Positions 6,001 through 36,625 of a stretch of DNA of 64,000 bases are shown here, one piece after another. Below the pieces are notes generated by a model that was given only the letters and a program-made list of their open reading frames with translations, did no database searches and was not told the origin of the DNA. Source of the DNA: Balanoglossus misakiensis (Eukaryota; Animalia; Hemichordata); contig CM082596.2 of NCBI GenBank assembly GCA_040954595.2, forward strand, positions 9,940,461 to 10,004,460, written 5' to 3'. A program made the translations under genes and the position numbers. Position 1 is the stretch's first letter. Each line of letters starts with the position of its first letter.

Positions 6001-9000
6001 CTAATAGTGCATCAGAGTAGATGGTGATGCAAGCTCTGCACTTTGACATAGGTATTTAATGCATATGCATGTGTATTTAATGTTGACTATAAATCCTCAG
6101 GTGAATACATGGCCATAAACACTATAATTTGACATTGCTAATGAAATGGTGACACTGAATCTGATTCTTTGCATCAGGGCATATTGTGAAGCATGCTTGA
6201 TGATGCATTAGGGTCAATAGTGATGGAAACACTGCACTATGACATGGGTATTTAATGCATACGCATTGATATTTACAGTTGACTCTAAATCCCGAGGTTT
6301 ATACATGGCTAAAAGCGCTGTAATTTAAAATTACTAATGCAAAGGTTACATTGAATATGGGTAAATGGTGAAGCAAGCTTGAAGATGCATCAGGGTAGCT
6401 GGTGTTTCAAGCCCTTCACATTGACATTGGAATATAATGCATATGGGGATTTAAAGTTGATTGTAAATCCCTAGGTTAATACATGGCCAAAAGCAATTTT
6501 ATTTGACATTGCTAATTGAACGATGACATTGAATCCGATTCTTTGCATCAGGGTAAATGGCGATGCAAGCTTGATGATGCATCACGGTAGATAGTGATGC
6601 AAACACTTTACTTTGACATGGGTATTAAATGCATATGGGGATTTCAATTTGATTACAAATCCCTGGGTTAATACGCGTCCAAAAGCACTGTAATTTGACA
6701 TTGCTAATGCGATGTTGACATTGAATGTAATTCTCCGCATTAGGGCAAATGGCAAAGCAAGCTTAATGATGCAATGGAGTAGACCGTGATGCAAGCTATG
6801 CATTTTGACATAGGTATTTAATGCATGTGCATGGGTATTAAATGTTGAATGTAAATTCTCAGGTTAATACATCTCCAAAAGCACTGTAATTTAAAATTGC
6901 TAATGTAAGGGTGACATTGAATCTGATTCTTTGCATTAGGGGAAATGGCGTAGCAAGCCTAATGATCCATCTGAGTAGATGGTGATGCAAGCTAAGCATT
7001 TTGACATAGGTACTAAATGTATATACATGGGTATTTAAAGTTGTCTGTAAATCCCCAGGTTAATACATGGCCATAAGCATTATAATTTGACATTGCTAAT
7101 GAAATGGTGACACTGAATCTGATTCTTTGCATCAGGGCATATTGTGAAGCATGCTTGATGATGTATTAGGGTCAATAGTGATGGAAACACTGCACTATGA
7201 CATGGGTATTTAATGCATACGCATTGATATTTACAGTTGACTCTAAATCCCGAGGTTAATACATGGCTAAAAGCGCTGTAATTTAAAATTACTAATGCAA
7301 AGGTTACATTGAATATGGGTAAATGGTGACGCAAGCTTGAAGATGCATCAGGGTAGCTGGTGTTTCAAGCCCTTCACATTGACATTGGAATATAATGCAT
7401 ATGGGGATTTAAAATTGATTGTAAATCCCTAGGTTAATACATGGCCAAAAGCACTGTAATTTAAAATTGCTAGTGCAATGGTGACATTGAATGTGATTCT
7501 TTGCATCAGGGCATATTGTGAAGCATGCTTGATGATGCATTAGGGTCAATAGTGATGGAAACACTGCACTATGACATGGGTATTTAATGCATACGCATTG
7601 ATATTTACAGTTGACTCTTAATCCCGAGGTTAATACATGGCTAAAAGCACTGTAATTTAAAATTACTAATGCAAAGGTTACATTGAATATGGGTAAATGG
7701 TGAAGCAAGCTTGAAGATGCATCAGGGTAGATGGTGTTTCAAGCCCTTCACATTGACATTGGAATATAATGCATATGGGGATTTAAAATTGATTGTAAAT
7801 CCCTAGGTTAATACGTGGCCAAAAGCAATTTTATTTGACATTGCTAATGCAACGATGACATTGAATCCGATTCTTTGTATCAGGGTAAATGGCGATGCAA
7901 GCTTGATGATGCATCACGGTAGATAGTGATGCAAACACTTCACTTTGACATGGGCATTAAATGCATATGGGGATTTCAAGTTGATTACAAATCCCTGGGT
8001 TAATACGCGTCCAAAAGCACTGTAATTTGACATTGCTAATGCGATGTTGACATTGAATGTAATTCTCCGCATTAGGGCAAATGGCAAAGCAAGCTTAATG
8101 ATGCAATGGAGTAGACGGTGATGCAAGCTATGCATTTTGACATAGGTATTTAATGCATGTGCATGGGTATTTAATGTTGAATGTAAATTCCCAGGTTAAT
8201 ACATCTCCAAAAGCACTGTAATTTAAAATTGCTAATGTAAGGGTGACATTGAATCTGATTCTTTGCATTATGGGAAATGGCGTAGCAAGCCTAATGATGC
8301 ATCTGAGTAGATGGTGATGCAAGCTAAGCATTTTGATATAGGTACTAAATGTATATACATGGGTATTTAAAGTTGTCTGTAAATCCCCAGGTTAATACTT
8401 GGCAAAAAGCAATTTTATTTGACATTGCTAATGAAATGGTGACACTGAATCTGATTCTTTGCATCAGGGTAAATGGCGATGCAAGCTTGATGATGCATCC
8501 CGGTAGATAGTGATGCAAACACTTCACTGTGACATGGGTATTAAATGCATATGGGGATTAAAAGTTGACTGAAAATCCCTGGGTTAATACAAGTCCAAAA
8601 GCACTGAAATTTGACATAGCTAATACAATGGTGACATTGAATGTGATTCTTTGCATTAGGGGAAATGGCGTAGCAAGCCTAATGATGCATCAGTGTAGAT
8701 GGTGATCCAAGCTATGCTTTTTGACATAGGTATTTAATGCATGTGCATGGGTATTTAATGTTGACTGTAAATCCCTGGGTTAATACAAATCCAAAAGCAC
8801 TGTAATTTGACATTGCTAATACAACGGTGTCATTTAATCTGATTCTTTGCATCAGGGCAAATTGCGAAGCAAGCTTAATGATGCATCGGAGTATATGGTG
8901 ATGCAAGCTATGCACTTTGACATACGTATTTAATGCATATGCATTGGTATTTAATGTTGACTGTAAATCCCCAGGTTAATACGTGGCCAAAAGCACTGTA

Positions 9001-12000
9001 ATTTGACATTGCTAATGCTACCGTGACACTAAATCTGATTCTTTGCATTAGAGTAAATTGTGAAGCAAGCTTGATGATGCATCAGGATAGATGGTGTTTT
9101 AAGCCCCTCACATTGACATTGGAATATAACGCATATGGGGATTTAAAGTTAATTGTAAATACCCAGGTTAATACATGGCCAAAAGCACTGTAATTTAAAA
9201 TTGCTAATGCAATGGTGACATTGAATGTGATTCTTTGCATTAGGGGAACTGGCGTAGCAATCCTAATAGTGCATCAGAGTAGATGGTGATGCAAGCTCTG
9301 CACTTTGACATAGGTATTTAATGCATATGCATGTGTATTTAATGTTGACTATAAATCCTCAGGTGAATACATGGCCATAAACACTATAATTTGACATTGC
9401 TAATGAAATGGTGACACTGAATCTGATTCTTTGCATCAGGGCATATTGTGAAGCATGCTTGATGATGCATTAGGGTCAATAGTGATGGAAACACTGCACT
9501 ATGACATGGGTATTTAATGCATACGCATTGATATTTACAGTTGACTCTAAATCCCGAGGTTTATACATGGCTAAAAGCGCTGTAATTTAAAATTACTAAT
9601 GCAAAGGTTACATTGAATATGGGTAAATGGTGAAGCAAGCTTGAAGATGCATCAGGGTAGCTGGTGTTTCAAGCCCTTCACATTGACATTGGAATATAAT
9701 GCATATGGGGATTTAAAATTGATTGTAAATCCCTAGGTTAATACATGGCCAAAAGCACTGTAATTTAAAATTGCTAATGCAATGGTGACATTGAATGTGA
9801 TTCTTTGCATCAGGGCATATTGTGAAGCATGCGTGATGATGCATTAGGGTCAATAGTGATGGAAACACTGCACTATGACATGGGTATTTAATGCATACGC
9901 ATTGATATTTACAGTTGACTCTTAATCCCGAGGTTAATACATGGCTAAAAGCACTGTAATTTAAAATTACTAATGCAAAGGTTACATTGAATATGGGTAA
10001 ATGGTGAAGCAAGCTTGAAGATGCATCAGGGTAGATGGTGTTTCAAGCCCTTCACATTGACATTGGAATATAATGCATATGGGGATTTAAAATTGATTGT
10101 AAATCCCTAGGTTAATACGTGGCCAAAAGCAATTTTATTTGACATTGCTAATGCAACGATGACATTGAATCCGATTCTTTGTATCAGGGTAAATGGCGAT
10201 GCAAGCTTGATGATGCATCACGGTAGATAGTGATGCAAACACTTCACTTTGACATGGGCATTAAATGCATATGGGGATTTCAAGTTGTTTACAAATCCCT
10301 GGGTTAATATGCATCCAAAAGTACTGTAATTTGACATTGCTAATGCGATGTTAACATTGAATGTAATTCTCCGCATTAGGGCAAATGGCAAAGCAAGCTT
10401 AATGATGCAATGGAGTAGACGGTGATGCAAGCTATGCATTTTGACATAGGTATTTAATGCATGTGCATGGGTATTTAATGTTGAATGTAAATTCCCAGGT
10501 TAATACATCTCCAAAAGCACTGTAATTTAAAATTGCTAATGTAAGGGTGACATTGAATCTGATTCTTTGCATTATGGGAAATGGCCTAACAAGCCTAATG
10601 ATCCATCTGAGTAGATGGTGATGCAAGCTAAGCATTTTGACATAGGTACTAAATGTATATACATGGGTATTTAAAGTTGTCTGTAAATCCCCAGGTTAAT
10701 ACATGGCCATAAGCTCTATAATTTGACATTGCTAATGAAATGGTGACACTGAATCCGATTCTTTGCATCAGGGCATATTGTGAAGCATGCTTGATGATGT
10801 ATTAGTGTCAACAGTGATGGAAACACTGCACTATGACATGGGTATTTAATGCATATGCATTGATATTTACAGTTGACTCTAAATCCCGAGGTTAATACAT
10901 GGCTAAAAGCGCTGTAATTTAAAATTACTAATGCAAAGGTTACATTAAATATGGGTAAATGGTGAAGCAAGCTTGAAGATGCATCAGGGTAGATGGTGTT
11001 TCAAGCCCTTCACATTGACTTGGAATATAATGCATATGGGGATTTAAAATTGATTGTAAATCCCTAGGTTAATACGTGGCCAAAAGCAATTTTATTTGAC
11101 ATTGCTAATGCAACGATGACATTGAATCCGATTCTTTGCATCAGGGTAAATGGCGATGCAAGCTTGATGATGCCTCATGGTAGATAGTGATGCAAACACT
11201 TCACTTTGACATGGGCATTAAATGCATATGGGGATTTCAAGTTGATTACAAATCCCTGGATTAATACGCGTCCAAAAGCACTGTAATTTGACATTGCTAA
11301 TGCGATGTTGACATTGAATGTAATTCTCCGCATTAGGGCAAATGGCAAAGCAAGCTTAATGATGCAATGGAGTAGACGGTGATGCAAGCTATGCATTTTG
11401 ACATAGGTATTTAATGCATGTGCTTGGGTATTTAATGTTGAATGTAAATTCCCAGGTTAATACATCTCCAAAAGCACTGTAATTTAAAATTGCTAATGTA
11501 AGGGTGACATTGAATCTGATTCTTTGCATTATGGGAAATGGCATAGCAAGCCTAATGATCCATCTGAGTAGATGGTGATGCAAGCTAAGCATTTTGATAT
11601 AGGTACTAAATGTATATACATGGGTATTTAATGTTGAATGTAAATTCCCAGGTTAATACATCTCCAAAAGCACTGTAATTTAAAATTGCTAATGTAAGGG
11701 TGACATTGAATCTGATTCTTTGCATTATGGGAAATGGCATAGCAAGCCTAATGATCCATCTGAGTAGATGGTGATGCAAGCTAAGCATTTTGATATAGGT
11801 ACTAAATGTATATACATGGGTATTTAAAGTTGTCTGTAAATCCCCAGGTTAATTCTTGGCAAAAAGCAATTTTATTTTACATTGCTAATGAAATGGTGAC
11901 ACTGAATCTGATTCTTTGCATCAGGGTAAATGGCGATGCAAGCTTGATGATGCATCCCGGTAGATAGTGATGCAAACACTTCACTTTGACATGGGTATTA

Positions 12001-12440
12001 AATGCATATGGGGATTAAAAGTTGACTGAAAATCCCTGGGTTAATACAAGTCCAAAAGCACTGAAATTTGACATAGCTAATACAATGGTGACATTGAATG
12101 TGATTCTTTGCATTAGGGGAAATGGCGTAGCAAGCCTAATGATGCATCAGTGTAGATGGTGATCCAAGCTCTGCGCTTTGGCATACGTATTTAATGCATG
12201 TGCATGGGTATTTAATGTTGAATGTAAATTCCCAGGTTAATATATGCATGGGTATTTAATGTTGACTGTAAATCCCTAGGTTAATACATGGCCATAAGTA
12301 CTGTAAGGGGTAGATGGTGATGCAAGCTCTGCACTTTGACATGGGGATTAAATGCATGCTGAGGGGGATTTTAAGTTGTCTGTAAATCCCCAGGTTGATA
12401 TGTGGCCAAAAGCACTGTAATTTGACATTGCTAATGATGG
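1..12440. repeat. Satellite DNA, ~196-bp monomer (variants ~192 and ~178 bp) in a 17-monomer 3262-bp higher-order repeat
   Basis: The GGTTAATAC anchor recurs at 143, 339, 535, 731, 908, 1104... Near-identical spurious ORFs recur at a 3262-bp period (885/4147/7409; 1390/4652/7914; 2188/5450/8712). The array runs off the left edge of the window. Confidence 0.97.
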
Positions 12441-16436: not shown

Positions 16437-16965
16437 CATGGGGATTAAATGCACATGCGTGTGTATTTAAAGTTAACTGTAAATCCCCAGGTTAATACGT
16501 GGCCAAAAGCACTGTAATTTGGCATTTCTAATGATGGTGAGATGTTGTTTGCTCCCCAGGGAGTTGAATGGAATATTTAGGTCCAACATCCTAGGTCAAA
16601 TGACCATGGGACAACTTAAAGCACGTTGAGATTTAATGTGCTACATAAGTTATAAATATTATAAAAATATTATTACATAAACAACACTCTTCCTTAGCAA
16701 AGGAAGTGGTCAGGTGAAATATATTCGCAGAGCTGACCAATTCTTTAAGGAAAATTAAAGTTGGGTAATTTGGATGTATTCATACGAGTGTTGGTCAATG
16801 ATAGGAAAGTCCTTTGTTCATTTTCAAAATGAAAACCAAAAATGCGAACAAAACACACTGAATTACGTATGGGATATTGATGTTGCCTAATTTGCGTGAC
16901 TCTACATTTACTTAAACTCTCACAGGGAGACAAATGTCACAGCAAACGGAAAAATGATTATGCTA
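16437..16965 (+). repeat. Duplicate of 12340-12860 (satellite part-monomer + SINE tail + flank)
   Basis: Direct colinear similarity to 12340-12860. Confidence 0.85.
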
Positions 16966-16967
16966 AG

Positions 16968-18935
16968 CAATACGCCAACCTTTAAAATATTACTTTAGAA
17001 AGTTTGTATTCATACTTTCTTCAAGTTGTCATAACGCTACCCCGAAATGTGTTTAAGTATTGCCTTTGTATTAATGGGCTAGATTCATGGCGTTATATGT
17101 CATAAATTAAAAAGCCAACCCTTATTGATTTTGATAATATTTATGTCGGAGAATCCACAATGAAAAATATGTATTTCAATTTCATAACTCAAAATGATTT
17201 TCAAATCCATGACCTTATTTTCAACTCCAGTGATCGTACATCCTGAACCTCGTGCCAGTAAATGATTGGCCATTACAGGGTTAATGGGCACTCTCCCGTT
17301 CTCTTCCTCCGCAGTTTCATTCATGTTCTTGTTTGACGGAAATGGGTGTGACCAGACGCTTGAATGTTTTCATGTGGGTGTCGTTGTTCATCGGGATCGG
17401 TCTCCTGGTGTGTCTGTACAGGTACGCAAGGAGAAACTGCCCACAAGAAGCTGCGAGTGAAACTATTTAAGGTAGTATGTGCCTCGCGGTCCGAGATTCA
17501 GACAAATGATAGTCCTCAAAACTTTTTCAAGTCTTTGATTTACTAAAGTGTATGGTGAGTCTCTTTGAAAACAACAAAAACATTACTCACCATATTGTTA
17601 TTTTTTTGAAAGTTTAAAATGAAGTTGACAATGTACCAAACAGATTCTATTTATTTCTTCATGACCATGTTCACCCCAAGGTCATATGGACCTGCAAGTA
17701 TATGCCAGAGCCAGAGTCGACATTACCGAAGCCAGAGTTCAAAGCTTGCAGGTCACCCCTTGCCAGCTCATGTCTAGCTAAACTGCCATGGATGCCAAGA
17801 GATATAGGACTACAGTAACCTGTAGATGGTTTCAGTATGTTTGAAGAAAGTGGTGGCGCACTTTTGGCTACATTTGAAATGGCTATGGTACCAGTGGTTG
17901 AATTTGCAAAGGTGACCTTTGACCTGGTATCATTAAAGATATTAAAGAACGATTGAACATTCCTTGTTGTCGTAAAATGACATCTGTAATAACTTATATT
18001 TTATCTGTTCATCTTGAAGTACTATATATTTAAACGCCAATTTTCCATTGCCAATCAATTTTTACAAATAAATTGTAATATGCATGTTGATTTTACAAAA
18101 ACTCCTTACTTCAAAGTGAATTCTGTTACACATCACGTAAATATTTTCCCCACGAATTCTTCAGTTGCTGACTCGGAAATTTCATATATTGGGCAGAAAT
18201 TGGATACATTACCGAGCCATTAAAATTACAGTTTTCTATTTTAATTGATCTTCCATAACTTCAAGTACTTTGATTTGACATAAATTAAAAACATCATGGT
18301 GAATAAATAAAAAATCTTTGATTATCTAATTGTGCATGTTTACATGGTTTTATTTTAGTATGCTGGGTACTTAATGTCTAATTGCTCGCTGATTTTATAC
18401 TGTTCAAGATGACAATCTAATTTTAGTTTTCAGCTGATAATGGAAATTACTGATTAAAAAAATTGAATTTTGTCATGAATAAACTTGTTGTTCATGGCAG
18501 TTGCTGTATTTTGTTTCATGTGTATTCAATTTTTGCAAGAATACCATTGAGCACAGTTTGATTTGATTAAACACGTTTATCGGAAAATTTTGTCATTTGA
18601 AATATCTGTTTTTGCGCCCTCTACCATTTGACCAAATGATTCTCTTATTTTGGTGGCCTTTGTCTGTGTATATGAGAATACTATAGTACTCTCGCATCGA
18701 TGATAGTAGAAGTTGAAAACGTCTCTTGCCACGTGGCCTAGAAGAAAGGTGATCTTTAGAGTAAAATAAAACAAACTATCCAGATAGGAAGCTAGAAAAG
18801 AAGTTGAATCGTTGAAATTTTATTTATTTTTATATTGTTAATATCGTTGGTGATGTTGACTGGCCGACAATCTTTGTCACACCAGTATTTGCAGGTAGAT
18901 TAAAACATTGCCTATTCCAGCAATAATCACAACAG
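16968..18935 (+). repeat. ~2-kb dispersed duplication, copy 1
   Basis: CAATACGCCAACCTTTAAAATATTAC...CCAGCAATAATCACAACAG is colinear with 33715-36625. Confidence 0.95.
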
Positions 18936-19149: not shown

Positions 19150-20446
19150 TGTCATATAATTAGGTAGTACTGGAGTCAGTGGAAACCCAGGTGCCCGCAT
19201 AATTTCAGGTGTAGTGACACCGTGTATTGTCATGTTAATGAATAGGGCTTCGTTAGCTAAGTTTCGTGTAGTAAGAGAGCACACTTCAATTTAGGTCTTG
19301 AAGGGAGCAACAAGTCGGGTCTCCCTGCTCAGTGAGTAGAAATACTAGGGGAAATATTGCACCATACCTTGCTGTGTCCATGTAATGCTGTAGCGCGCAT
19401 TAGTGCTCTCAGGACCACTGTTTCTGCAATTCGAGTGGAAGTAAATTCAGTACTTCTAGAAAGCAGAATTGTGCTTATTCAGTGCAAACCGGTGTGGTCG
19501 GGCGATTGGCGTGGCTGGCATGGTCGTATGTGGTGTGGCTGGAAATTGCTCCAAGCAGAGTTCTGTGGAACCATCCTATAGACCCGGTATTGCTGAGCAT
19601 GAAGTGTGGTGAAGAATTCTCGTGTAAGTAATGTATTTGTTTATTTATTTACTATAACTTAAATTTATATTTTATGGATATTTATGTCAAATTCGACAAT
19701 TTGTAAGTAATAGGACGGTCATAGTTAAAGCATAATTTTCCATGATATCACATGTAATCATGACGCTTTAACTAGTCCAAATTTCTGATAATTATTATTG
19801 AGAAACATCAGTATTCATTTGTGAACAGTTGCTAAGGTGGACATTTCAGTCAATGTTTGTTGATTTTTCATTCAGCCATTTAACCCAAGACTTGCATCTA
19901 ACAAGTCAGTCTTCAGTGTGTTTACTTGACTACTGGAGGACTACAAGTGGTAGAAAACATGGTGTATCACAGATTGTATGTGTAATGTGGATCGTCGCTA
20001 CATCGTTCATCTATACAGGACTCCATCCCATATTGTGGTTGAATCATGATTGTTTACTATGAATGTTATATACAGCTAAGTGACACTTACCATTGTTTAG
20101 ACAATATGCAATAGACAATAAACTATAGTGATATTGTGAATATATTCATTTATGTAATATATTAAGTAACCCATTGTATTGTATGACCAATTGTATCAGC
20201 ATACCTGTACCTGCTAAATTGGTTAGGACAGAGACATTTGATATTGTGCATATTGTGCACAAAAATTATATTCCTAGTATTATCTTTATATTATTTAATT
20301 GATTTAAATTAAATCAACTGTATTATTGTATCCGCACTGGTTTGTGTAGTTTCTCCCCATACCTTATCCACGGATGTTTACTCCTTGGCACTGAGAGCTG
20401 CTCAATATTTATCCTGGAATCAGAGGGGTGCCCTCCACCTCTGACA
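19150..20446 (+). repeat. 5' LTR (1297 bp) of a Gypsy retrotransposon
   Basis: TGTCA...TGACA inverted termini. The start is fixed by the paralogous uninterrupted site at 36935-36959 and the end by the PBS 2 nt downstream. Confidence 0.8.
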
Positions 20447-20784: not shown

Positions 20785-22557
20785 TTGGAAGGGACTGCTT
20801 TAAAAGATTATGTTAGAGAGGAACAAATTAGACAGAGGGATCTTAGGGCTACTGAGAGAGAGGAGCAGAGAGAAGATAATAGGCGGCGCGAGGAACATGA
20901 GAGAGAGATACTGAAAATGCAAATTCACTTACAAGAATTAAAATTGAAAGGGGAAAATACAGAACAGCAGGTTACTGAAAATAATTTGGCCAAAGCGCGT
21001 GCTCCGAGACTACAGGGTTTACGTGAGGATGTTGATGATATGGATGCGTACCTTCAACGTTTTCAGCGCTACGCCACTGCTCAGAAGTGGGAAAAAGATG
21101 ACTGGGGGTGAATCTCAGTGCATATTGTTACAAGGTAAGGATGTATCCACATACAACCAAATGCCTGCAGCGTCTGCAAATAATTATGATGAATTGAAAC
21201 CAGAGTTATTGAGGGCTTACCAGTTAAGTGAGGAGAGTTTTCATGACAAGTTCCGTTCGTGTATGCCACATTATGATGAAAGTGCTCAAAAGTTTATGGA
21301 CCGTATTGGTGACTATTTGGGCAGATGGGTAGAACTGGCTGGTACTCCAAAGACGTACAATGGGCTTACAGATCTGTTACTTCGAGAGCAGTTTATTGGA
21401 GTATGTTCCAGAGACATGGCAATGTTCATTAGAGAGCGACGGCCAGAGAATGTCCAAGAGATGGTATCTACTGCCTCAAAATACTTAGATGCCCGAGGGT
21501 GGTGGAAACTGCCAAGTAATGCCAAGAATAATCCAAGGAGCCAGCCGACAGCAAATACCAAGCCTGCTGTATATCCAAATCAAGTAAATAAGTTTAATAA
21601 CAAAACCAATGGTTCCCATGTTTTTAAAGGTACGTGCTTCGTATGTGGTAAAGGTGGTCATATGGCCAAAGATTGTAGAAGTAAGCCAAAGATGCATAAG
21701 ACGGCGGTATTGTTAACTGAAGAAGATAGAAACTATCCACCTAAACAAGAATGTACACATTGGGGCAACCGTCAACAGCCCAGGGGACTAGACACTGGTT
21801 ATGCATGTATGGTGGTAGCAATGGAAATAGATAAAACAGATGCAACACTGAATAAGGAGTTCGTGTTACCATGTGGTCATAAGCTCCCAGTGATGAGTGC
21901 TGCTTGTAGTGCCCATGGAGTGAAGAAGATGCCGGTAATGAAGGGATTGGTCGATGGTAAGCTGGTTAGCGTTTTGCGTGATAGTGGGTGTAGTAGCGTG
22001 GTAGTTCGAAGAAGTCTGGTGTCAAGTAATCAGCTGACTGGTGAGTACAGGACGTGTGTTCTGATAGATGGGACTATTAGAAGAGTACCTGTAGCCTCTA
22101 TAAAAGTTGATACCCCTTACTTTGTTGGTGATGTTACTGCACTGTGCATGATGAACCCTGTGTATGATTTAATACTGGGCAACATTGATGGTGTATCTGA
22201 CCCTTCGAATCCTGATACTACATGGCAGGAACCATTGCCGACATGTAGACTGTGTACAACTGTTGGACAGGTACCAGGTTTAGCAAATGCTGTGGAGACC
22301 AGAGCCCAGAAGATAGCCAACCAAAAACCAATCAGAGAGCTTAAAGTACCTAAAGCTGTTGGTGAAGTGGTGATGCCAGGGAAGCTTCAACAAGCTCAAG
22401 AAGAAGACTCCACTCTTGACAAACTACGTGAGAAGGCAATTTTGGGTGACGAGAAAGTGACTAGGAATGGAGGTAGGTTGAAGTTCATCATGAAAGATGG
22501 GATCCTGTACAGAGAGTTCAATTCGCCAATGGTCCAATTTGGTGAAAAGCTGTTACA
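20785..22557 (+). pseudogene. gag: gag-protease part of the Gypsy polyprotein (frameshift near 21110)
   Basis: Coiled-coil N-terminus and DMDAYLQRFQRYA in ORF 20785; LLLREQF, CFVCGKGGHMAKDC knuckle and LRDSGCS protease in ORF 20999. Confidence 0.9.
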
Positions 22558-22600
22558 CACTGCGGGAAATACTAGAGCTATGTTGGGCAGTATTCCGCGA
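22558..22600 (+). repeat. Left bipartite terminal inverted repeat
   Basis: CACTGC-N20-TGGGCAGTATTCCG. Confidence 0.8.
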
Positions 22601-22641
22601 AGCGCGAGCTCCCATGTTCACCATAGCAACGCATTGCCAAG

Positions 22642-23292
22642 ATGGCGGCGCCCGTGTTGATCGATGCCGAGAAAGTTATAAAACGCAAATTGCGAGAGGC
22701 AAAATCTGTGCTTAAACGTAAAAAATGCGTGTCGGACAATCTGTATATACACCCACTCTTTGATGAACTTGAGGATGTGACAACAAGGGCCATATTTCGA
22801 AACGACAAGCTGTCAAAGGACAAGATTCGTTGGCGTGACGTCGCCGTATTTCCCATGTTTCAGCGTGATATGACCTACTGGCAGAAGACCTTCTACGCTC
22901 GGCTGTCAACATCCCCGTCGTTAAGGTCACCATGGCAAAGCAGCTTTACACAACAAATGCCGAGGGAAGTATTTGATGTTTTTCATCAGTTTGCTACTCG
23001 GACCGGTTTTGGTATCGACGAGAAGACCTCCAGGGCTATCATAACCTTGACCTTCACAAGTTCCTCGAAGCTATTGTATGTGATACGGAAAGGTTATTGC
23101 TACGAGGGCGCTATCGGTCAGCATACAGAGAATATCCTAGAGAAGAAAGTCCGTGGAAAGAGGGTAGCTGTTATATGCACACCTGAGAAGCCCTGTGTTG
23201 TGAAATATTTTATCAACAGGGAGACTGTTGCTGTTAGATTCAGCTTTGGTGCCTGGAACAAACATGGAATTCCATTACATCCAGAGAACTGA
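22642..23292 (+). CDS. 216-aa basic protein of unknown function, transposon accessory gene
   Basis: Uninterrupted ORF with ATG in CAAGATGGCGGCG 84 bp inside the left end, AATAAA at ~23421 and a globular-looking composition. No domain recognised. Confidence 0.7.
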   Translation: MAAPVLIDAEKVIKRKLREAKSVLKRKKCVSDNLYIHPLFDELEDVTTRAIFRNDKLSKDKIRWRDVAVFPMFQRDMTYWQKTFYARLSTSPSLRSPWQSSFTQQMPREVFDVFHQFATRTGFGIDEKTSRAIITLTFTSSSKLLYVIRKGYCYEGAIGQHTENILEKKVRGKRVAVICTPEKPCVVKYFINRETVAVRFSFGAWNKHGIPLHPEN

Positions 23293-24144
23293 ACCCTATT
23301 GATTTTTCACACTGATTCAACCCATCTGACGAACATTTTTTTCCTGATCTGTGGCACATGTTGTTCAGTGTAGATGTATCAGTCTGTCAAGACAGTCCTC
23401 TCACAATTGACATATATTCAAATAAAAAAAGGAAAATTAGAAGACTCAAAAATTCATCACTTGTCTTTATTTATCTACATTCAATACAAATGAACAGATA
23501 ACGTTTACAAAATTTCCTAAACTGTAAAATTCTTTTTTTCCATCATTATTGTAACATAGATTTTTCATTAGTTTCAGAAAAAAATGTATGTTACCTACAA
23601 TCAACATTGATAAGTCAATCAAAACTGCTCATCTAACAGTTAACCAGGATTTCTGGTCTAAATTTAATTAATATTTACAATTAATTCCATGACAAAATTT
23701 ATAAATATCAAGAATTTGATGAGACTTAATTCTTTATTTTTTCACAAATTCATTAAAATTTCGTGCAGGTGCAGAATAAACAACTCCTCAAGAAAAATGT
23801 AAAACTTTTCTATCAAGCTTATGTATGTCATACATTTTAATTTTGCAAAGCACTGCAATCACTATACGATTAAGGGTTTATTCACAATACTTAATAGTGG
23901 TAAGATAAGTTTCAATTTCCCTGTCCCCATACATGCACACATATACAAAATCCCATAAGAAACATATCATCTCCAGTTCAAAAAGTGTGAATTCATGTGA
24001 TTTGTGATCTCCATTTTTATTAAATGCAGCTCTCAACTACAGATGAGTCTTTATAATTCTGTAATGTAATTAATACCATAGTTATCCTTTAATTCTAAAG
24101 TAGCACACAGTGACACAATCCACTGTTTCAAATTCAATCATTGT

Positions 24145-26385
24145 TCACAGCATAAGTTTCTTGAGTTTATTTGATATTTTACCAGTGACAGCTGCTTTTT
24201 TTATGTCATCCATAATTGGGTCAACACATATTTCACAGGCAGTCATTGTTTCATTTTTCAAATTGCCACACATACAGTAGCCTGCATTCTCATAATATCG
24301 ACTGGGAATGTATTTTTCTTTTTCTTTAAGCTCAAATTGACCTACATTTGCCCTTCTATAGTTGTCAGCTTTTGGACTTTTGTTCCTCAGCCAAAAAAGC
24401 ATCACATATTCGTGTCGAAATATGAGGGCCCACCTATTTTGAGGTGTAGAATTTTCACTGAATTCTAGCAGGCGTAGATGCTTTGCCTCTCTGCCTTCCA
24501 TTGTGTTTAGGCCTAATCCCAGACTGAATTGCTTATAGATACTAGTGGTGTGTTTTGGGACTACATAACCAATGTGCCACACAGTATTATTGACATTCAG
24601 AAACAGGGAATGTAGATTAAAGTACCACCGACACTTATGCCTAAGTACAAGCAAATCTCCCTCATTTATGTTGAATCGTGAGAATAACAAAGTGATATCT
24701 CTAAGCAAGATACCAGTATATGTGTAGAGAGCTAATTGAGCCCGACGCTTTGGACTGTCTGTATCGCTTCTCAATGCTAATACCAATCCCATGAAATGCC
24801 AAGCAAGTTTGCGAGACTCCTCACCAGTGAAGCGATAAACCACATTAATGTTGGCATTTGACTTGACACTATTTTCATTGAAGTATTTTACAATCTTATT
24901 ATACAACTTTCCAGCTTTTACTTGATATTTTAGGGCAGACAGGAATTTGTACAGATATGACTCGTTAGGTAGATTCTCAATTTTAACTCCATTTTCACGA
25001 CCCTTTTCCGAAGTGTGGGCAACTGCGTCAATCAGTAATCGTTGGAAGTAGTATTGCCATGCATTGTTCTTTAAATGCAATGGCTCAGCCTTGGCACAAT
25101 CAATAAATCTACCCAACGGTGGTACAAATTCCTGTCTTGACCTCAGACTGGCTATAAATTGTGTGATTTTGGGTCGCACTGTTTTGGGCTTTCCAGTTTT
25201 AATTTTCTTAGTTGACTTCAACTTTTCAACAGCTTCTGCATCTTTAATTCTTTTCTGATATTTCCATTCATCCCACTTCTGACCTGGGCCAATTTCTGCT
25301 CCAATACAATCAATATCATTTTTGGAAACGTTAGCAAATGAGCTGAAATACTTTGCTGCATTGCTTAGTTCTCCAGACACACTGGCCAATCCCTTCTGAT
25401 CAAAGGGTAAAAGTGACACCTGAAAAGTTACATCAAGACTGCCAACTTTATATTTACGTTTCTCAATACACTCAAGGTCTTTTGACAATGCAATTGCAAA
25501 TTCAATCATTATGGGGTCATCCTCTTTTATGTTTGCCCCTAATAGGAGAATATTGTGGTCTGGGCTAGCAACACGGTGGGTCACATTCAAGAAACTAACT
25601 AGCCATGCAGTGGCCTGTCCATGTTTGCCAAACGGAGCCCCGTCAGCACCTATACTGATTTGAAATGAGCCCTCCTGTTTACCGAACCAGTTAAGAATAT
25701 CAGGCTGTGTTTCCCCCATATTTAAATATAAACTGGCAATCTTAATAAGCAACTCCTCAGGGTTTCTTTTTAAGCCGACTTGTTTGCCTTCAGATGATAT
25801 AATTGGCTCAAGATTTCCAATGTCAAGGTTACTTACATACTGTACAACTTTTGTGTATGGGAGCAGTCTTGGTATTCTACAGCCAGAATGAATTTCTAAT
25901 GCTTTCCTAGGATGTTTCAAGTTGGAGAACATCTGAAGTTCACTCTGCCTCAGACAGTTATATTTTCGTTTGGATAGTACTCCGCCCTCATACATAGTTC
26001 TGACACTCCTCACCAAATTGTTCTCACTTTTCTCAAATTTACTGATGTATTTATCAAATACTGATGGCATTACTTTTTTACTGATTTGGGGAGAGGTTCT
26101 GAAGTATGTTTTCATTTGGTCAGGAGTGGCAGAATTAACAAGAGTATACCACAAACCATCAAGTGCTGCTTTTGGTGGATGTAGTACATTCGGTTTATTT
26201 ATACCTTTGGCTGGGCTTACATCTGTAGTTGCTACATGAATATTTATGGCTGCTGATAAGGTTTCACACCTACGTTCATACTGTTGACGTCGCGACAGCT
26301 TCAAAGATTCACTATTATCTGCACATACTTCAGTGTTCTTGTGGACCCATTTAGAGCGTTTCACATTAACATCATCAACAGGAAT
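24145..26385 (-). CDS. DDE transposase, RAG1-core/Transib/Chapaev-like; main (last) exon
   Basis: Motifs in RAG1 order: ISIGADGAPF (D), LLPFDQKGL (D), EPLHLKNN, RFTGEESRKL, GLGLNTMEGREAKH (E), then a C-terminal CMC-x9-CEIC. Splice acceptor TCTTTCAG at 26386, phase 0. Confidence 0.85.
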   Translation of the reverse strand: MPVDDVNVKRSKWVHKNTEVCADNSESLKLSRRQQYERRCETLSAAINIHVATTDVSPAKGINKPNVLHPPKAALDGLWYTLVNSATPDQMKTYFRTSPQISKKVMPSVFDKYISKFEKSENNLVRSVRTMYEGGVLSKRKYNCLRQSELQMFSNLKHPRKALEIHSGCRIPRLLPYTKVVQYVSNLDIGNLEPIISSEGKQVGLKRNPEELLIKIASLYLNMGETQPDILNWFGKQEGSFQISIGADGAPFGKHGQATAWLVSFLNVTHRVASPDHNILLLGANIKEDDPIMIEFAIALSKDLECIEKRKYKVGSLDVTFQVSLLPFDQKGLASVSGELSNAAKYFSSFANVSKNDIDCIGAEIGPGQKWDEWKYQKRIKDAEAVEKLKSTKKIKTGKPKTVRPKITQFIASLRSRQEFVPPLGRFIDCAKAEPLHLKNNAWQYYFQRLLIDAVAHTSEKGRENGVKIENLPNESYLYKFLSALKYQVKAGKLYNKIVKYFNENSVKSNANINVVYRFTGEESRKLAWHFMGLVLALRSDTDSPKRRAQLALYTYTGILLRDITLLFSRFNINEGDLLVLRHKCRWYFNLHSLFLNVNNTVWHIGYVVPKHTTSIYKQFSLGLGLNTMEGREAKHLRLLEFSENSTPQNRWALIFRHEYVMLFWLRNKSPKADNYRRANVGQFELKEKEKYIPSRYYENAGYCMCGNLKNETMTACEICVDPIMDDIKKAAVTGKISNKLKKLML

Positions 26386-26738
26386 CTGAAAGATTAAGTG
26401 TGTGATAAATATATACTAATTAGAATATAATCATTATATATAAAATAAAATCTTCTTACAAGTTAATCATTAATTTAAATGTCCTTGATAAGAAATACAC
26501 ACGTGTAGCCTGTATTTTTCTGACAACTTCTGCAATAAAAATCCTAAAAAATATATATAGTTTGTTGGAAAACCTAGATGTTTTGCATCAAAGCTGAACC
26601 CATTTTGTTATCATTGTTTACACAGGATCATGTGACATGAAGTTCAAAAAGCGAATTTGGGCTAAAATTTGAAGAGGATTTATACAAATCTGAGATTTTT
26701 AAAATTATGACTAAGTCTATTTATCTGATCTAGCTTAC

Positions 26739-27182
26739 CTTTCTCTTATTATTCTTTGTAGCTAAGATCTCACAAATCTTACTGTTCTTCTTCTCTAGTC
26801 TAGCTAGCTGGGTTGAGGATCTTTTTACTAGTCTCCTAGCTGCACTCAACTTATTCAACTTATCCTGAATTATGCTTTCTTCCTCATCTCTCTTTCTCTT
26901 TCTCTGTCTACACCACTCTCCTAAGTTAAACCTGTGTTTAGTCTGTCCTCTCTTTGTTCTAACTACCAATAGGTTGTTGGCCACGCTCCCAGACAAAGAT
27001 CTAGTCTTCAATTTCTCCTGATATAGTTGTTGCAAACACTTCTCTTCAGCTACCTGTCTCGCTATCTTTTGGTCCTTTGTCCACTGGCCTATGTTGAAGT
27101 AACTTTTCCCTTTTCTATTCGGCATAACAATAGACAAACTTTTAAGAAGTGCGCTACTCCTGTTGAATAGTTTGCCCCACAT
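26739..27182 (-). CDS. Upstream coding exon of the transposase (148 aa, K/R-rich, helical)
   Basis: ATG at 27182 in GCCATG; donor AAG|GTAAGC at 26738 joins in phase 0 to IPVDDVNVKR, giving ~894 aa in total. A further acceptor (CCCTTTTCAG, 27199) and donor (ATG|GTAAGG, 27334) suggest a 5'UTR intron. Confidence 0.7.
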
Positions 27183-27987
27183 GGCTCTAAATCTATACCT
27201 GAAAAGGGTGAACAAGAGAAATATCTTTACAATAATTATCTATCCGAGGGAAGCAAAAACAAAACACCTGCTCATTATACTTCCTCCAGAAATTGAGGTC
27301 AAAGGTGACATAGAAAGAATGTGGGTAACCTTACCATAACAATCTCGCCCGTTCATTTTTTTCTTATTTCGTTTTCACCCTCGAATTTCCAGCGAATTAT
27401 ATCAAGAATATATTTTAGCACAAACTATTGGTTTCTGATTTTTCAGTTACGGTCTTATTTTCTGTCAATTCTATGAACAATATCACCATGTCGCTGAAAA
27501 TTCGAAGCGCCGCCATTACAATCAATGTAACCCGTGCTGCTGCCAAGGAACACACAGGGTCGTATATTTTCGCTTGGTATGATTTCGTCATATTGCTTGT
27601 AGCAGCATTTTAAACATGGAATCCTATGTTTACGTATAAAAGACTAAATTCGTATGGTTTTCAAATTGAAAAAAACAATTCTGTGAAGCTGAATCGTTGT
27701 AATTTTTAGTGTTTGTTTATGGTTGCTTAGGACGGCTTCTGCTATAGCAACGGCCAGGGACTGTCAGCGGGTGATCAAAATGTTCAAGTTATTTGGCTGA
27801 TACACATAAATAACACAGCAGAATCGCAACTTTATTTCATATTGTCTCTGACATCTTGCTAATTTTACTAAACAAAACTTGGAATAAAGCAATATTACTC
27901 ACCGAATTATGCTGTGCATCGACAGCTGTGTTCGATCGCGAACGCCATTACTGTGTCTAATTAAATATTCATGAGCTTCATAGGCTG

Positions 27988-28031
27988 CCACGGAAATACT
28001 GCCCATAGGTGGCGTCGTTCAAGCTGTAGTG
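27988..28031 (-). repeat. Right bipartite terminal inverted repeat
   Basis: The reverse complement reads CACTAC-N20-TGGGCAGTATTTCCG. Confidence 0.8.
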
Positions 28032-28034
28032 ACA

Positions 28035-29995
28035 GGTGGTGGTTCCCAGAGTGTATCGTAACCAGGTGATGAGACTAGCCCATGAATCAGTGCTGGGTGG
28101 TCACCACGGAACTCACAAGACCACAGACAAGATCCTCAGCAACTTCGTTTGGCCTGGGCTAACATCAGATGTTTCCCGTTACTGTCAGTCCTGTGATTCA
28201 TGTCAACGGACACAACCAAAGGGACGGGTGACCAAGGTACCACTTGGAAGTATGCCACTAATAGATATCCCTTTCCTACGTATTGCAGTAGACCTGGTTG
28301 GCCCTATTCATCCATGCACTGAACGCAAGAATAGGTACATACTTACTGTTGTTGATTATGCAACACGCTATCCGGAGGCTGTTGCATTGACTAACATTGA
28401 TACCAAGACTGTTGCAGAGGCGCTCCTGGACATCTACTCAAGAGTGGGGTGTCCACGTGAAATTCTGACAGATCAAGGAACTCAATTTACATCAGATGTG
28501 ATGCGTGAGGTCAGCCGGCTTTTGTCTATAAAGCAGAAGACTACCACCCCATACCACCCAGCATTCAATGGTCTAGTGGAACGGTTCAATGGTACATTGA
28601 AACTCATGCTCAGGAAGATGTGTGAGGAACGTCCAACATATTGCGATCGTTATCTGAATGCTTTACTATTTGCCTACAGAGAAACGCCTCAATCGAGCAC
28701 AGGATTCTCTCCGTTTGAGTTACTTTATGGGAGGAGTGTGCGTGGTCCAATGGCTATCTTGAAAGAACTATGGACTGGAGAGATCAGTGAACCAGAAACC
28801 AAAACGACTTATCAATACATCCTTGATCTTCAAAAGAAATTAAAGAAGGCATGCGATTTAGCAAGACAAGAACTGAAGATATCACAAGGCAAATACAAGT
28901 CCTACTACAATAGAAAGGCCAAATGGAGGAAGTTCAACAAAGGTGACGAGGTGTTATTGCTACTACCTACTGACCATAATAAACTACTTATGCACTGGAA
29001 GGGTCCTTTTCCAGTGGTGGAGAAAGCGAGCAATATGGATTACAAGATTGACTTTGGTCATAGGGTGAAAACATTCCATGCCAACCTGTTGAAGAGGTAC
29101 TATCGAAGAACTGATCAGCTAGATGAAGTATCAGCTGGACTTCTTGAGATTGTGTGTGTATCTGTGATAGATGAGCAGAGTTATGAATCTTCAGAAGTAC
29201 AAGAGAACACAGGGGTTAAAGTAAACGATGACTTACTGCGGGTTCCTGCATTCAAGCAGAAAGAATTTGCTGCAGATGTGAATGTATGTGACAACTTGTC
29301 AGACATACAGGAGCAAGTGGTGAGGAGGTTGCTGATCAATTACAAAGATATGTTAACTGATATTCGTGGTAACACCAACCTGGGTTTCCATGACATCAAG
29401 TTGATGGATCCAACACCAGTATGCAGTAGGCCATACCCCATCCCTCATGCACTCCGTGAAGCAGTGAAAGATGAAGTCAAAACGATGATTAAGATGGGAG
29501 TAGCTGAACCTTCAGAGAGTCCATATGCTGTTCCACTGGTAATGGTGAAGAAATCTGATGGGTCCAATCGTTGTTGTGTTGACATGAGAAAGCTCAATCG
29601 CATAACAGTGTTTGATGCAGAGCCTACACCAGACCTGAGTGATCTCAGCAAAGAATATTGGCAAGTCCCGTTGACTGATAATTCTAAACAATTGACGGCA
29701 TTTATCACGCATGATGGGCTATACCAATTTATCAAAATGCCTTTCGGACTTGTAAATAGTGCTGCGACTTTTAGCAGAATTATGAGAAGATTGTTAAGAG
29801 ATATGAAGAACGTAGACAACTATATCGATCACATACTGATCCACACTGCATCATGGGAAGAACATATCAAGACAATTACAGATTTGATGAGCAGACTACG
29901 AAAGGCAAAGTTAACAGCGAGACCAACTAAGTGTTATGTGGGTTATGAGCAGATCGATTTCCTGGGTCATGTGGTTGGTCATGGTGAACTATTCC
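28035..29995 (+). pseudogene. pol: Integrase + defective, truncated reverse transcriptase of the Gypsy element
   Basis: AHES..GHHG..CDSC zinc finger, AVDLVGP, ILTDQGTQF, GLVERFNGTLK and WKGPF, then RT motifs PYAVPLVMVKK, MPFGL, YIDH (for YIDD) and FLGHVVG. There is an internal deletion before DLSKEYWQ. The ORF tail to 30201 is unrelated sequence. Confidence 0.92.
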
Positions 29996-30094
29996 TGTTT
30001 CAAAATGACCTACATTACAGGTCCTATGCACACGTATTACATGTTCTGATTGGTTTATCCACTTCTCTAAGGTCCACTTGCGGCTCGCTGATTG

Positions 30095-30355
30095 GAGGGA
30101 CCTTATGTGTTAGGTCTTATTACTATGTATTATTCACCAGACCTTGTAGGTTAGGTCTTATTACAATGCATTATTCACTTTACAGCTCCCTGATTGGTTA
30201 ATGTGTAGGTCTGGTCCTCCAGTGTTCACTGCCTCATTATGCAGGACCTTGTAGGTTAGGTCTTATTAATATGTATTTATTCACCATACAGCTCCCTGAA
30301 TGGTTAACGTGTCAGTCTGGTCCCCCCCCCCCAGTGTTCACTGCCTCATTGTGAA
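30095..30355. repeat. Short local tandem duplication (~106-bp unit)
   Basis: ACCTTGTAGGTTAGGTCTTATTA at ~30141 and ~30247; CCAGTGTTCACTGCCTCATT occurs twice. Confidence 0.6.
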
Positions 30356-33600: not shown

Positions 33601-33714
33601 AGCGTTAACATAACTTTATCAGAATAAGTTAACGCCATAACTTTGACAGAATAAGAGTTGCCTCAAACGGCTCTAACCGAATTTCCATTAATAGCAGAAC
33701 AAACAAGCTGTAAT

Positions 33715-36625
33715 CAATACGCCAACCTTTAAAATATTACTTTAGAAAGTTTGTATTCATACTTTCTTCAAGTTGTCATAACGCTAACCCGAAATGTGTT
33801 TTAGTATTGCCTTTGTATTAATGGGCTAGATTCATGGCGTTATATGTCATAAATTAAAAAGACAACCCTTATTGTTTTTGATAATATTTATGTCGGAGAA
33901 TCCACAATGAAAAATATGTATTTTCAATTTCATAACTCAAAATAATTTCCAAATCCATGACCTTATTTTCAACTCCAGTGATCGTACATCCTGAACCTTG
34001 TTCCAGTAAATGATTGGTCATTACAGGGTTAATGGGCACTCTCCCGTTCTCTTCCTCCGCAGTTTCATTCATGTTCTTGTTTGACGGAAATGGGTGTGAC
34101 CAGACGCTTGAATGTTTTCATGTGGGTTGAGTTGTTCATCGGGAACGGCCTCCTGGTGTGTCTGTACAGGTACGCAAGGAGAAACTGCCCACAAGAAGCT
34201 GCGAGTGAAACTATTTAAGGTAGTATGTGCCTCGCGGTCCGAGATTCAGACAAATGATAGTCCTCAAAACTTTTTCAAGTAATTGATTTACTAAAGTGTG
34301 TGGTGAGTCTCTTTGAAAACAACAACAATATTACTCATCATATTGTAATTTTTTGAAACTATAAAATGAAGTTGACAATGCACCAAACAGATTCTATTTA
34401 TTTCTTCATGACCATGTTCACCCCAAGGTCATATGGACCTGCAAGTATATGCCAGAGCCAGAGACGACATTACCGAAGCCAGAGTTTAAAGCTTACAGGT
34501 CACCCCTTGCCAGCTCATGACTAGCTAAACTGCCATGGATGCCAAGAGATATATGACTACGGTAACCTGTAGATGGTTTCAGTATGTTTGAAGAAAGTGG
34601 TGGCGCACTTTTGGCTACATTTGAAATGGCTATGGTACCAGTGGTTGAATTTGCAAAGGTGACCTTTGACCTGGCATCTTTAAAGATATTAAAGAACGAT
34701 TTACCATTCCTTGTTGTCGTAAAATGACATCTGTAATAACTTATATTTTATCTGTTCATCTTGAAGTACTATATATTTAAACGCCAATTTTCCATTGCCA
34801 ATCAAGTTTTTACAAATAAATTGTAATATGCATGTTGATTTTACAAAAACTCCTTACTTCCAAGTGAATTCTGTTACACATCACGTAACTATTTTCCCCA
34901 CGAATTCTTCAGTTGCTAACTCGGAAATTTCATATATTGGGCAGAAATTGGATACCGTATATTCTCACAAATAAGCGCCACCCATGATTAGGCGCCAGTG
35001 ATACCTGACTTTGCTACTTTTTACTTAAAATTAAGCGCCAGGAATTTTTTTTGAGGTGTGTGGACGTACGTGAATCATGACAAGTGCTACCGAGGTAACA
35101 CCTGTTTAGGGGTCTCGTCAAAAACAACGGGGGGCTTGCTGTGTGAATAATAATTGACCTGAGCAGACAATGCATGCTTTGGGCTGATGTGCTATTTATT
35201 TACAAGATGAAATCGGGCACGTGTCAACCTCCTAATTTATGTAAATTATCACACTGCAAAAGACACAGGTGCCGGGCGTCTAGACACTCGTCTTTTTCCT
35301 GTCGATCGATCGGCAGCCGCTTACGTTACCGGCACTACCACCCAAGTTTGACCATATGGCCAGGGCTTTGAAATAATAGGACTAGTTTCAAGTTGTGAAT
35401 ATGTTTGCGGTATTAATTTTCTCGTGAATATTCACGCAACGTGAGTACATGTATTCACGCAACCTTGCCTGACCTTACATGTATGAGAGCATGATGACAA
35501 AGACGCACTTGGACTAAACCACTATACGTCAGTAGATTTTGTTGATGGTTCAGCCAGCATACTGTAATGCTGCTCGTAGTATTCACTTCGTTGACAACTT
35601 TTTATTTCTGGAATATTTATTAGATAATACATTGAACTGACTGTATTTGAATAGAAAATGTTAAAACTTTACATATGAATTTGAAACAGCCATTCATTCA
35701 CTACGGACACTCCCTTATGAGAACACTGATTGGAACGTCCCAAATCATTTGCATATGAATCAACAGGGTACAGTATACCGGGCTATCCATGAATAAGCGC
35801 CACCGGTTCTTGAAAAGACTCATTTCTGCCTTTGTTTAGGCGCCACCAAAATTTGAAATGGTTAAAAAGTGGCGCTTATTTGTGAGAATATACGGTACAT
35901 TACCCAGCCATTAAAATTACAGTTTTCTATTTTAATTGATCGTCCATAACTTCAAGTACTTTGACTTGACATACATTAAAAACATCATGGTGAATAAATA
36001 AAAATTATTTGATTATCTAATTGTGCATGTTTACATGGTTTTATTTTAGTATGCTGGGTACTTAATGTCTAATGGCTCGCTGATTTTATACTGTTCAAGA
36101 TGACAATCTAATTTTAGTTTTCAGCTGATAATTGAAATCAATGATTCAAAAAAATTGAATTTTGACATGAATAAACTTCTTGTTCATGGCAGTTGCTGTG
36201 TTTTGTTTCATTTGTATTCAATTTTTGCAAGCATACCATTGAGCACAGTTTGATTTGATTAAACACGTTTATCGGAAAATTTTGTCATTTGAAATATCTG
36301 TTTTTGCGCCCTCTACCATTTGACCAAATGATTCTCTTATTTTGGTGGCCTTTGTCTGTGTATATGAGAATACTATAGTACTCTCGCATCGATCATAGTA
36401 GAAGTTGAAAACGTCTCTTGCCACGTGGCCTGGAAGAAAGGCGATCTTTAGAGTAAAAAAAACAAACTATCCAGATAGGAAGCTAGAAAAGAAGTTGAAT
36501 CGTTGAAATTTTATTTATTTTATATTGTTAATATCGTTCGTGATGTTGACTGGCCGACAATCTTTGTCACACGAGTCTTTTCAGGCAGATTAAAACATTG
36601 CCTATTCCAGCAATAATCACAACAG
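33715..36625 (+). repeat. ~2-kb dispersed duplication, copy 2 (with a 941-bp MITE insertion)
   Basis: Colinear with 16968-18935 apart from the insertion. Confidence 0.95.
34955..35895. mobile_element. Non-autonomous Tc1/mariner-pogo element, perfect 27-bp TIRs, TA TSD
   Basis: TA|CCGTATATTCTCACAAATAAGCGCCAC...GTGGCGCTTATTTGTGAGAATATACGG|TA. The empty site GGATACATT is present in the paralog at ~18202. Confidence 0.92.

Follow-up and report, generated by a model that had tools for sequence, protein, structure and literature searches.

The evolution of RAG is usually told as that of Transib plus RAG2. The Transib superfamily, which includes HzTransib, was presented by Kapitonov and Jurka in 2005, and its ends are described there as a heptamer, a variable stretch of 23 bp and a nonamer, symmetric in most families (PMC1131882). 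Transib ends with symmetric spacers of 20-22 bp are given in PMC8355894, while those of ProtoRAG consist of TR1, 27/31 bp and TR5 (PMC8289069), and RAGL and Transib ends are said to share a common bipartite structure (PMC9435367). With regard to target duplications, RAGL elements generate 5 bp (PMC7204232), and some Transib have 3-bp duplications (10.64898/2026.08.26.747230). Transib elements encode one protein, and Chapaev and Chapaev3 are defined by an N-terminal Chapa zinc-finger domain (PMC4411706). The CMCT clade (Kojima 2025, PMC12730594) is characterised by CA..TG termini, duplications of 2-5 bp, and the motifs C(2)C and H(3-4)H. The comparison with print made below also covers 10.1101/2021.09.26.461848.

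The window analysed here, a stretch of 64,000 nucleotides from the acorn worm Balanoglossus misakiensis, harbours a 5,474-bp DNA transposon whose ends, read directly from the window, lie at 22558 and 28031 (Table 1). It is flanked on both sides by the 3-bp duplication ACA, absent from an earlier note on this DNA, and by successive parts of one Gypsy-type gene, with SCAN, zinc knuckle and protease-like parts preceding the element and an integrase zinc-binding domain, an integrase core and part of a reverse transcriptase following it, which together identify a 5,474-bp insertion with exact ends. Two further end candidates, CACTACAGCT at 31751 and CACTAC at 19216, were rejected for want of an inner block. 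The element combines inverted ends, a target duplication and a DDE-type transposase with putative catalytic residues, the features by which DDE cut-and-paste transposons are recognised. Starting from the observed ends, duplication, gene layout, conservation and selection on the second gene, we consider it probable that this is a cut-and-paste transposon generating 3-bp duplications, in which a transposase of the RAG1/Transib fold, likely assisted by the product of a conserved tail-to-tail partner gene, holds each end by a two-point grip.

Table 1. Features of the element, in window coordinates; transposase residues are counted from 26364.
Feature	Position	Strand	Remarks
Left copy of the target duplication, ACA	22555..22557	n/a	read from sequence
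Outer block CACTGC, partner-gene-side end	22558..22563	+	read from sequence
20-nt spacer, left end	22564..22583	+	5/20 alike to right end; inverted 9-mer inside (22565-22573)
Inner block TGGGCAGTATT, left end, positions 27-37	22584..22594	+	G29-G30-C31 in register with related families
Partner gene, 216 aa	22642..23292	+	model: helical hairpin and alpha/beta domain
Large transposase exon	24145..26385	-	predicted RAG1/Transib fold; D241, D322, E626 invariant; C-terminal CxC-x10-CxxC
Predicted GT-AG intron	26386..26738	-	its removal fuses two frames into a single open one
Predicted upstream coding exon, basic	26739..27198	-	ATG at 27182 (894 aa) or 27125 (875 aa)
Inner block TGGGCAGTATT, transposase-side end, positions 27-37	27995..28005	-	read from sequence
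20-nt spacer, transposase-side end	28006..28025	-	
Outer block CACTAC, transposase-side end	28026..28031	-	read from sequence
Right copy of the target duplication, ACA	28032..28034	n/a	read from sequence

The transposase is predicted from a minus-strand frame of 739 codons and an upstream exon, which the intron would join into a protein of 875 or 894 residues. The upstream exon, which contains three scattered cysteines, is matched by an annotated Nematostella protein (P0073), and an upstream motif was found in 17 of 46 loci, in one of them on the wrong strand. No Pfam family was assigned at cut-off to the window transposase or to 18 homologs, and sequence searches of solved structures returned nothing for the transposase, its profile or its N-terminal profile. 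Homologs amount to 260 proteins from 7,998 candidates scored, the best of which, from Ptychodera flava, is 75% identical over the searched part, the remainder reaching 36-45%; those with a named source come from corals, anemones and a ribbon worm, and all are uncharacterised. Relatives were found at none of 21 in the viral collection and at 1 of 37 in prokaryote genomes, the latter most likely host DNA in a MAG. In an alignment of the window protein with 108 of 120 listed homologs, D241, D322 and E626 are invariant in all 109 sequences, and their invariance and motif order suggest that they are likely the catalytic triad.

The structure model (pLDDT 91) predicts that the transposase folds like the RAG1 core and Transib. 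Foldseek retrieved RAG1 with an E value of 6e-13, and the 49 matches at E<=0.001 among the rows listed were all RAG1, HzTransib or BbRAGL chains. VIA superposed the model on the RAG1 core with a Z score of 22.9 (rmsd 4.0, 468 residues aligned), on HzTransib with 20.3 (rmsd 4.1, 426 aligned), on BbRAG1L, the BbRAGL protein, with 20.0 (rmsd 4.0, 460 aligned), and on the P element transposase with 11.1. The closeness to RAG1 may partly be an effect of availability, since the structures listed include no EnSpm or Chapaev enzyme. In the Atlas, the neighbours shown are unnamed cnidarian clusters, followed by DUF1280 (16% of members) and RAG1 families, which we treat as a lead. When modelled within the whole protein, basic helices at residues 25-111 sit just before the part overlaying RAG1 from residue 460 onward; a search with the N-terminal profile gave no match to the RAG1 nonamer-binding domain. 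Across the 109 sequences, the C(2)C motif is absent from the stretch that separates the second D from the final E, where the common cysteines form single columns at 521 (59 sequences) and 578 (85), and the family reads YFSSFAN after D322. In the H(3-4)H region before the last E, H605 is present in 107 of 109, and position 600 is H in 52 of 109 and Y in the window. A conserved cysteine cluster N-terminal to the core was found nowhere in the alignment.

The partner gene converges on the transposase gene, tail to tail, with its ATG at position 85 from its own end of the element. An iterated profile run over 80 related loci found a homolog in 34 of the 40 with at least 1,200 bp downstream; the other six, with enough flank, gave no match. 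All 39 partner matches, in 36 loci, lie downstream of the transposase and on the opposite strand, in frames of about 200-300 residues. Eleven pairs were compared: the dN/dS ratio is 0.26-0.33 in five unsaturated pairs and 0.07 in one near-identical pair, and pN is below pS in five saturated pairs. The partner gene is under purifying selection. Its distances correlate with those of the transposase (17 elements, rho 0.54, reached by none of 5,000 permutations); as shared inheritance alone yields such a correlation, it establishes linkage and not contact. Complex prediction, with alignments not used, scored 0.00, which speaks neither for nor against contact. The partner likely assists transposition, a role that we infer from two things, its fixed linkage and the selection acting on it.

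The partner model (pLDDT 84) is helical over residues 2-87 and contains six short strands, too few for a six-bladed propeller, so the protein is not of the RAG2 type. Foldseek found no match to this fold at E<=0.001, and VIA, applied to the whole-protein model, reached its best Z score of 8.9 on the helical hairpin only and at most 5.1 on the alpha/beta part; the partner profile matched nothing among solved structures by sequence. A single-sequence search recovered none of 87 candidates, and a profile search recovered 15 of 3,990, all of which carry the precomputed label PF26709. Argonaute N-domain clusters came up in the Atlas (score 0.93, recognition 1431, under the mark) and count as a weak lead, Pfam on 34 members lending no support.

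Comparison with Transib reveals a predicted fold in common, tips that begin with CAC, ends in two parts around a variable middle, mostly symmetric spacing and, in some Transib, 3-bp duplications. The window protein, however, is 13% identical to Transib, within the 10-13% that separates it from the solved members of the RAG1/Transib clan. Its inner block is GC-rich at 27-37 (core 29-33), whereas the Transib nonamer is A-rich and lies at 31-39; its outer blocks read CACT(G/A)C (CACGCYGGG in relatives) in place of a CACAATG-like heptamer; and the lineage lacks C(2)C and carries a second gene in contrast to the single protein of known Transib (PMC4411706). RAGL and ProtoRAG provide the best structural match, and share two convergent genes between two-part CAC-tipped ends, introns and a cysteine-rich C-terminal tail. 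Here too, identity is low (10-12%), and the partner, a 216-residue protein with a helical and an alpha/beta part, differs from the RAG2-like six-bladed propeller, usually with a PHD. Furthermore, the duplication is of 3 bp against the 5 bp of RAGL (PMC7204232), the spacing is symmetric as opposed to 12/23 or 27/31, the tail reads CxC-x10-CxxC instead of Cx2Cx3GHx4C, and C(2)C is missing. With EnSpm/CACTA, Chapaev/Chapaev3 and the CMCT clade, the element shares CA..TG termini and a duplication within 2-5 bp, its own tips being CACTA/CACTG with 3 bp. It differs from them in lacking C(2)C, a Pfam match and a subterminal repeat array, the inner block occurring once per end; and the absence of an N-terminal cysteine cluster sets the family apart from Chapaev and Chapaev3, which carry the Chapa domain.

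Since the element departs from RAGL in its partner and in the 5-bp duplication, from Transib in the one-gene content and the nonamer, from Chapaev in the Chapa domain, and from CMCT in C(2)C, we file it as an unplaced lineage. It would work like Transib and RAGL, and may be regarded as an unplaced member of the RAG1/Transib structural clan, probably distinct from EnSpm and Chapaev on the basis of their descriptions and of motif tests. Among the alternatives, the one that survives best, which we nevertheless judge unlikely, is that this is an ordinary animal element of EnSpm/CACTA or Chapaev3 type, catalogued in Repbase, with a second gene that would be cargo or a loosely associated accessory outside the transpososome. 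The CACTA/CACTG tips and the 3-bp duplication fit EnSpm (PMC12730594), and the six loci with enough flank and no partner match point the same way; the motif differences listed above weigh against it. Within the literature covered, no RAG1-fold element combining a 3-bp duplication with a convergent non-RAG2 gene was found; members of the family may nevertheless stand in Repbase, Repbase Reports or the supplementary lists of PMC9435367 and PMC12730594. What is new is the lineage and its partner gene. The end design has already been published for Transib as symmetric two-part ends (PMC1131882, PMC8355894), alongside the TR1-27/31-TR5 arrangement of ProtoRAG (PMC8289069). More tentatively, and at odds we would put well below even, the lineage, widespread among acorn worms, ribbon worms, anemones and corals, may form a superfamily-level branch of its own within the RAG1/Transib clan, having shed the zinc-binding cysteines and taken on a non-RAG2 subunit independently, in the same tail-to-tail layout; nature would then have arrived for a second time at a two-component RAG-like transpososome, here one that acts on symmetric two-part signals.

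The two ends were compared from 22558 to 22594 and, on the minus strand, from 28031 to 27995. Positions 1-4 and 6 are identical, spacer positions 7-26 match at 5 of 20, and inner positions 27-37 at 11 of 11. The ends themselves read exactly as the earlier note had written them, with CACT(G/A)C, 20 nt and an inner block from 27. When positions 7-60 were shuffled, 4 of 200,000 trials gave an in-register block of at least 11, and across the 64 kb each strand contains the inner 11-mer TGGGCAGTATT a single time. An inverted partial copy of the inner block, proposed as a hairpin or second binding site, is indeed present, as GGAAATACT at left positions 8-16, the inverse of the longer inner block of the right end. 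The hairpin itself exists, yet is not clearly beyond chance: folding of the left 45 nt yields -6.5 kcal/mol (z -1.8), a value matched by 8 of 200 shuffles, and among relatives 1 of 34 ends folds at z<-2. The likeness drawn to V(D)J signals stands insofar as these are transposon ends served by an enzyme predicted to be RAG1-like, but beyond CAC the blocks do not resemble the RSS heptamer, nor is the inner block A-rich like the nonamer.

A related element was found in a public sample (one sample, with two runs, X1 and X2, from one study). It differs from the window at 20 positions and 2 gaps over 114 bases (about 82% alike), and its end starts with CACTAC and carries the same inner block at 27 behind a spacer that is 9/20 alike. 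The wider comparison drew on metagenome contigs, from which 80 of 285 loci were retained, with ends located by a pattern on positions 1-9 only. Nine candidate ends were dropped as chance or internal occurrences and near-identical ones merged, leaving 34 ends, one of them an internal end-like copy omitted from the per-cluster count; all were aligned gap-free from CAC. The window transposase shares about 35-43% identity with these loci, never more than 43%, and their tips read CACG(C/G)YGGG. Three places carry more information than the 95% shuffle maximum, namely, the A/T-rich 23-26, the GGCCA-like 29-33 and position 36, with weak conservation at 10, 11, 13, 15 and 21; pairwise identity is 0.30-0.33 at 10-22, 0.47 at 23-26, 0.48 at 29-33 and 0.26 at 41-60. 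GGC begins at position 29 in 13 of the 34 distinct ends, the next best position reaching 3. When each cluster (<60% transposase identity) is represented by one end, 9 of 17 have G-x-C beginning at 29, against 7.5 at 30, 5.4 at 17 and a median of 1. Both window ends carry G29-G30-C31, which is all that their 11-mer has in common with distant relatives, the exact 11-mer being found at no end among the 80 loci.

In the 10 families whose two ends share a contig, left/right identity is 0.99 at 1-10, 0.42 at 17-21, 0.76 at 29-33 and 0.26 at 41-60. Five families are split, two are intermediate, and three (L019, L026 and L030) have near-continuous repeats of 30-35 bp, with identities of 9, 7 and 9 of 9 at positions 16-24. 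Exceptions in the inner block are a 1-nt shift in L036, a deletion in L017, and unlike inner blocks at the two ends of L081. Inner positions are conserved gap-free across families, and 3 of 10 families are near-continuous, so that fixed spacing is a family trait and a wholly free spacer is not. Of the earlier note's expectations, symmetric fixed spacing is therefore borne out across families, as is a constant distance to the inner block when relatives' ends are aligned, the three exceptions aside; the free spacer holds for the window and for a middle that is near background, and gives way in the three near-continuous families and at the weakly conserved positions within 10-21. These data also bear on whether the ends are former continuous inverted repeats of about 37 bp whose middle has decayed or been exchanged, the inner match being a mere remnant devoid of a binding role. 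The near-continuous families would fit such a history, and the window offers a single insertion, hence no family consensus. Random decay, however, would not leave 11 of 11 inner positions beside 5 of 20 in the middle, and the public-sample relative has the same block in the same place behind a different spacer. The gap-free conservation of inner positions (0.48 against 0.30-0.33) and the five split families argue likewise, so that we give this reading little credence. Just as improbable is that the inner block serves as a host-factor or promoter element for two inward-pointing genes, as YY1 on ProtoRAG ends (a host factor reported in the available part of PMC7481187), for although a gene starts at each end, with the partner ATG so close, and the relatives' inner block is a near-palindrome centred on 30 (dyad z 4.3, best of 50 centres, in sequences that are related), this would give no reason for a fixed distance from the tip while the sequence changes between families. 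The window inner block is not palindromic in the manner of its relatives.

Duplications of 3 bp occur in 5 of the 9 families that could be evaluated, or 5 of 12 loci, and none of 4-8 bp was seen; the four families lacking one come from metagenome contigs, which may be chimeric. An apparent TTA duplication in L009 was dropped, the end-like copy being internal and the same flank recurring in six loci. In many relatives, long internal inverted repeats of hundreds of bases lie upstream of the transposase and mirror the partner-side region (L008-L013, L016-L019, L030, L041, L043, L072), and L008-L013 contain a second end-like copy within the element. L081:4325-12866 is a complete relative with a partner gene and an ATA duplication; it lies among tandem repeats, and its contig is binned with an Anaerolineae MAG, in which it is most likely host DNA.

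On the preferred reading of a RAG1/Transib-fold transposon held by a two-point grip, and by analogy with RAG and Transib, a transposase dimer would pair both ends, its DDE site reading the outer CAC block, and cut at CAC, flank cleavage being assumed to proceed with hairpins, and integration would follow with a 3-bp stagger. The inner block near position 30 may be gripped by the basic N-terminal helices, which occupy the place of the RAG1 nonamer-binding domain and are its putative equivalent, or else by the partner. Such a rigid grip at two points would set the distance and let much of the middle drift.

The end design by itself would be ordinary. A lineage that joins the RAG1 fold to two-part ends and a 3-bp stagger, lacks C(2)C and has a partner that is convergent and unrelated can, as an outgroup, make three points testable, namely, whether this fold repeatedly needs a partner subunit, what determines a duplication of 3 or 5 bp, and how two-part ends that are symmetric get measured, ahead of any asymmetry of the 12/23 kind. 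The near-identical copies annotated at full length in Nematostella would make this tractable in a laboratory animal. In that species, four proteins of 797 residues, encoded at different loci, fall into one 90% cluster, which fits recent mobility of the lineage. As for the window copy, contigs of the public sample, which drop rare variants, span both of its junctions with no other flanks, and a second, independent insertion of its own family was not seen; in these contigs the large exon lacks 1 bp at 25326 and has 1 bp extra behind 24253. The junction-spanning contigs and the two indels count against present activity of this copy. Mean contig depth is similar over the Gypsy flanks and the inserted element (about 1,500-1,730 in X1 over window 21800-28800). 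The related element's contig has a depth of 114, far below that of the composite, and no empty-site joint was listed. There is a hint that the composite of Gypsy and element is multi-copy, depth being no copy number.

The Gypsy-type host element extends over 20999-22557 and 28032-30201; its integrase precedes the partial reverse transcriptase, which ends early, an order that we take to be Gmr1-like. A direct repeat of about 2 kb, 92-99% alike, brackets this region at 16964-18935 and 33711-36625, and within its second copy sits an insert of 945 bp (34953-35897) whose inverted ends are perfect over 29 bp, likely a MITE. The whole cluster of mobile elements is surrounded by satellite arrays at 1-12290 and 37611-64000, built of units of 196/388 bp, 239 bp and 77-78 bp, the shortest occurring in both orientations.
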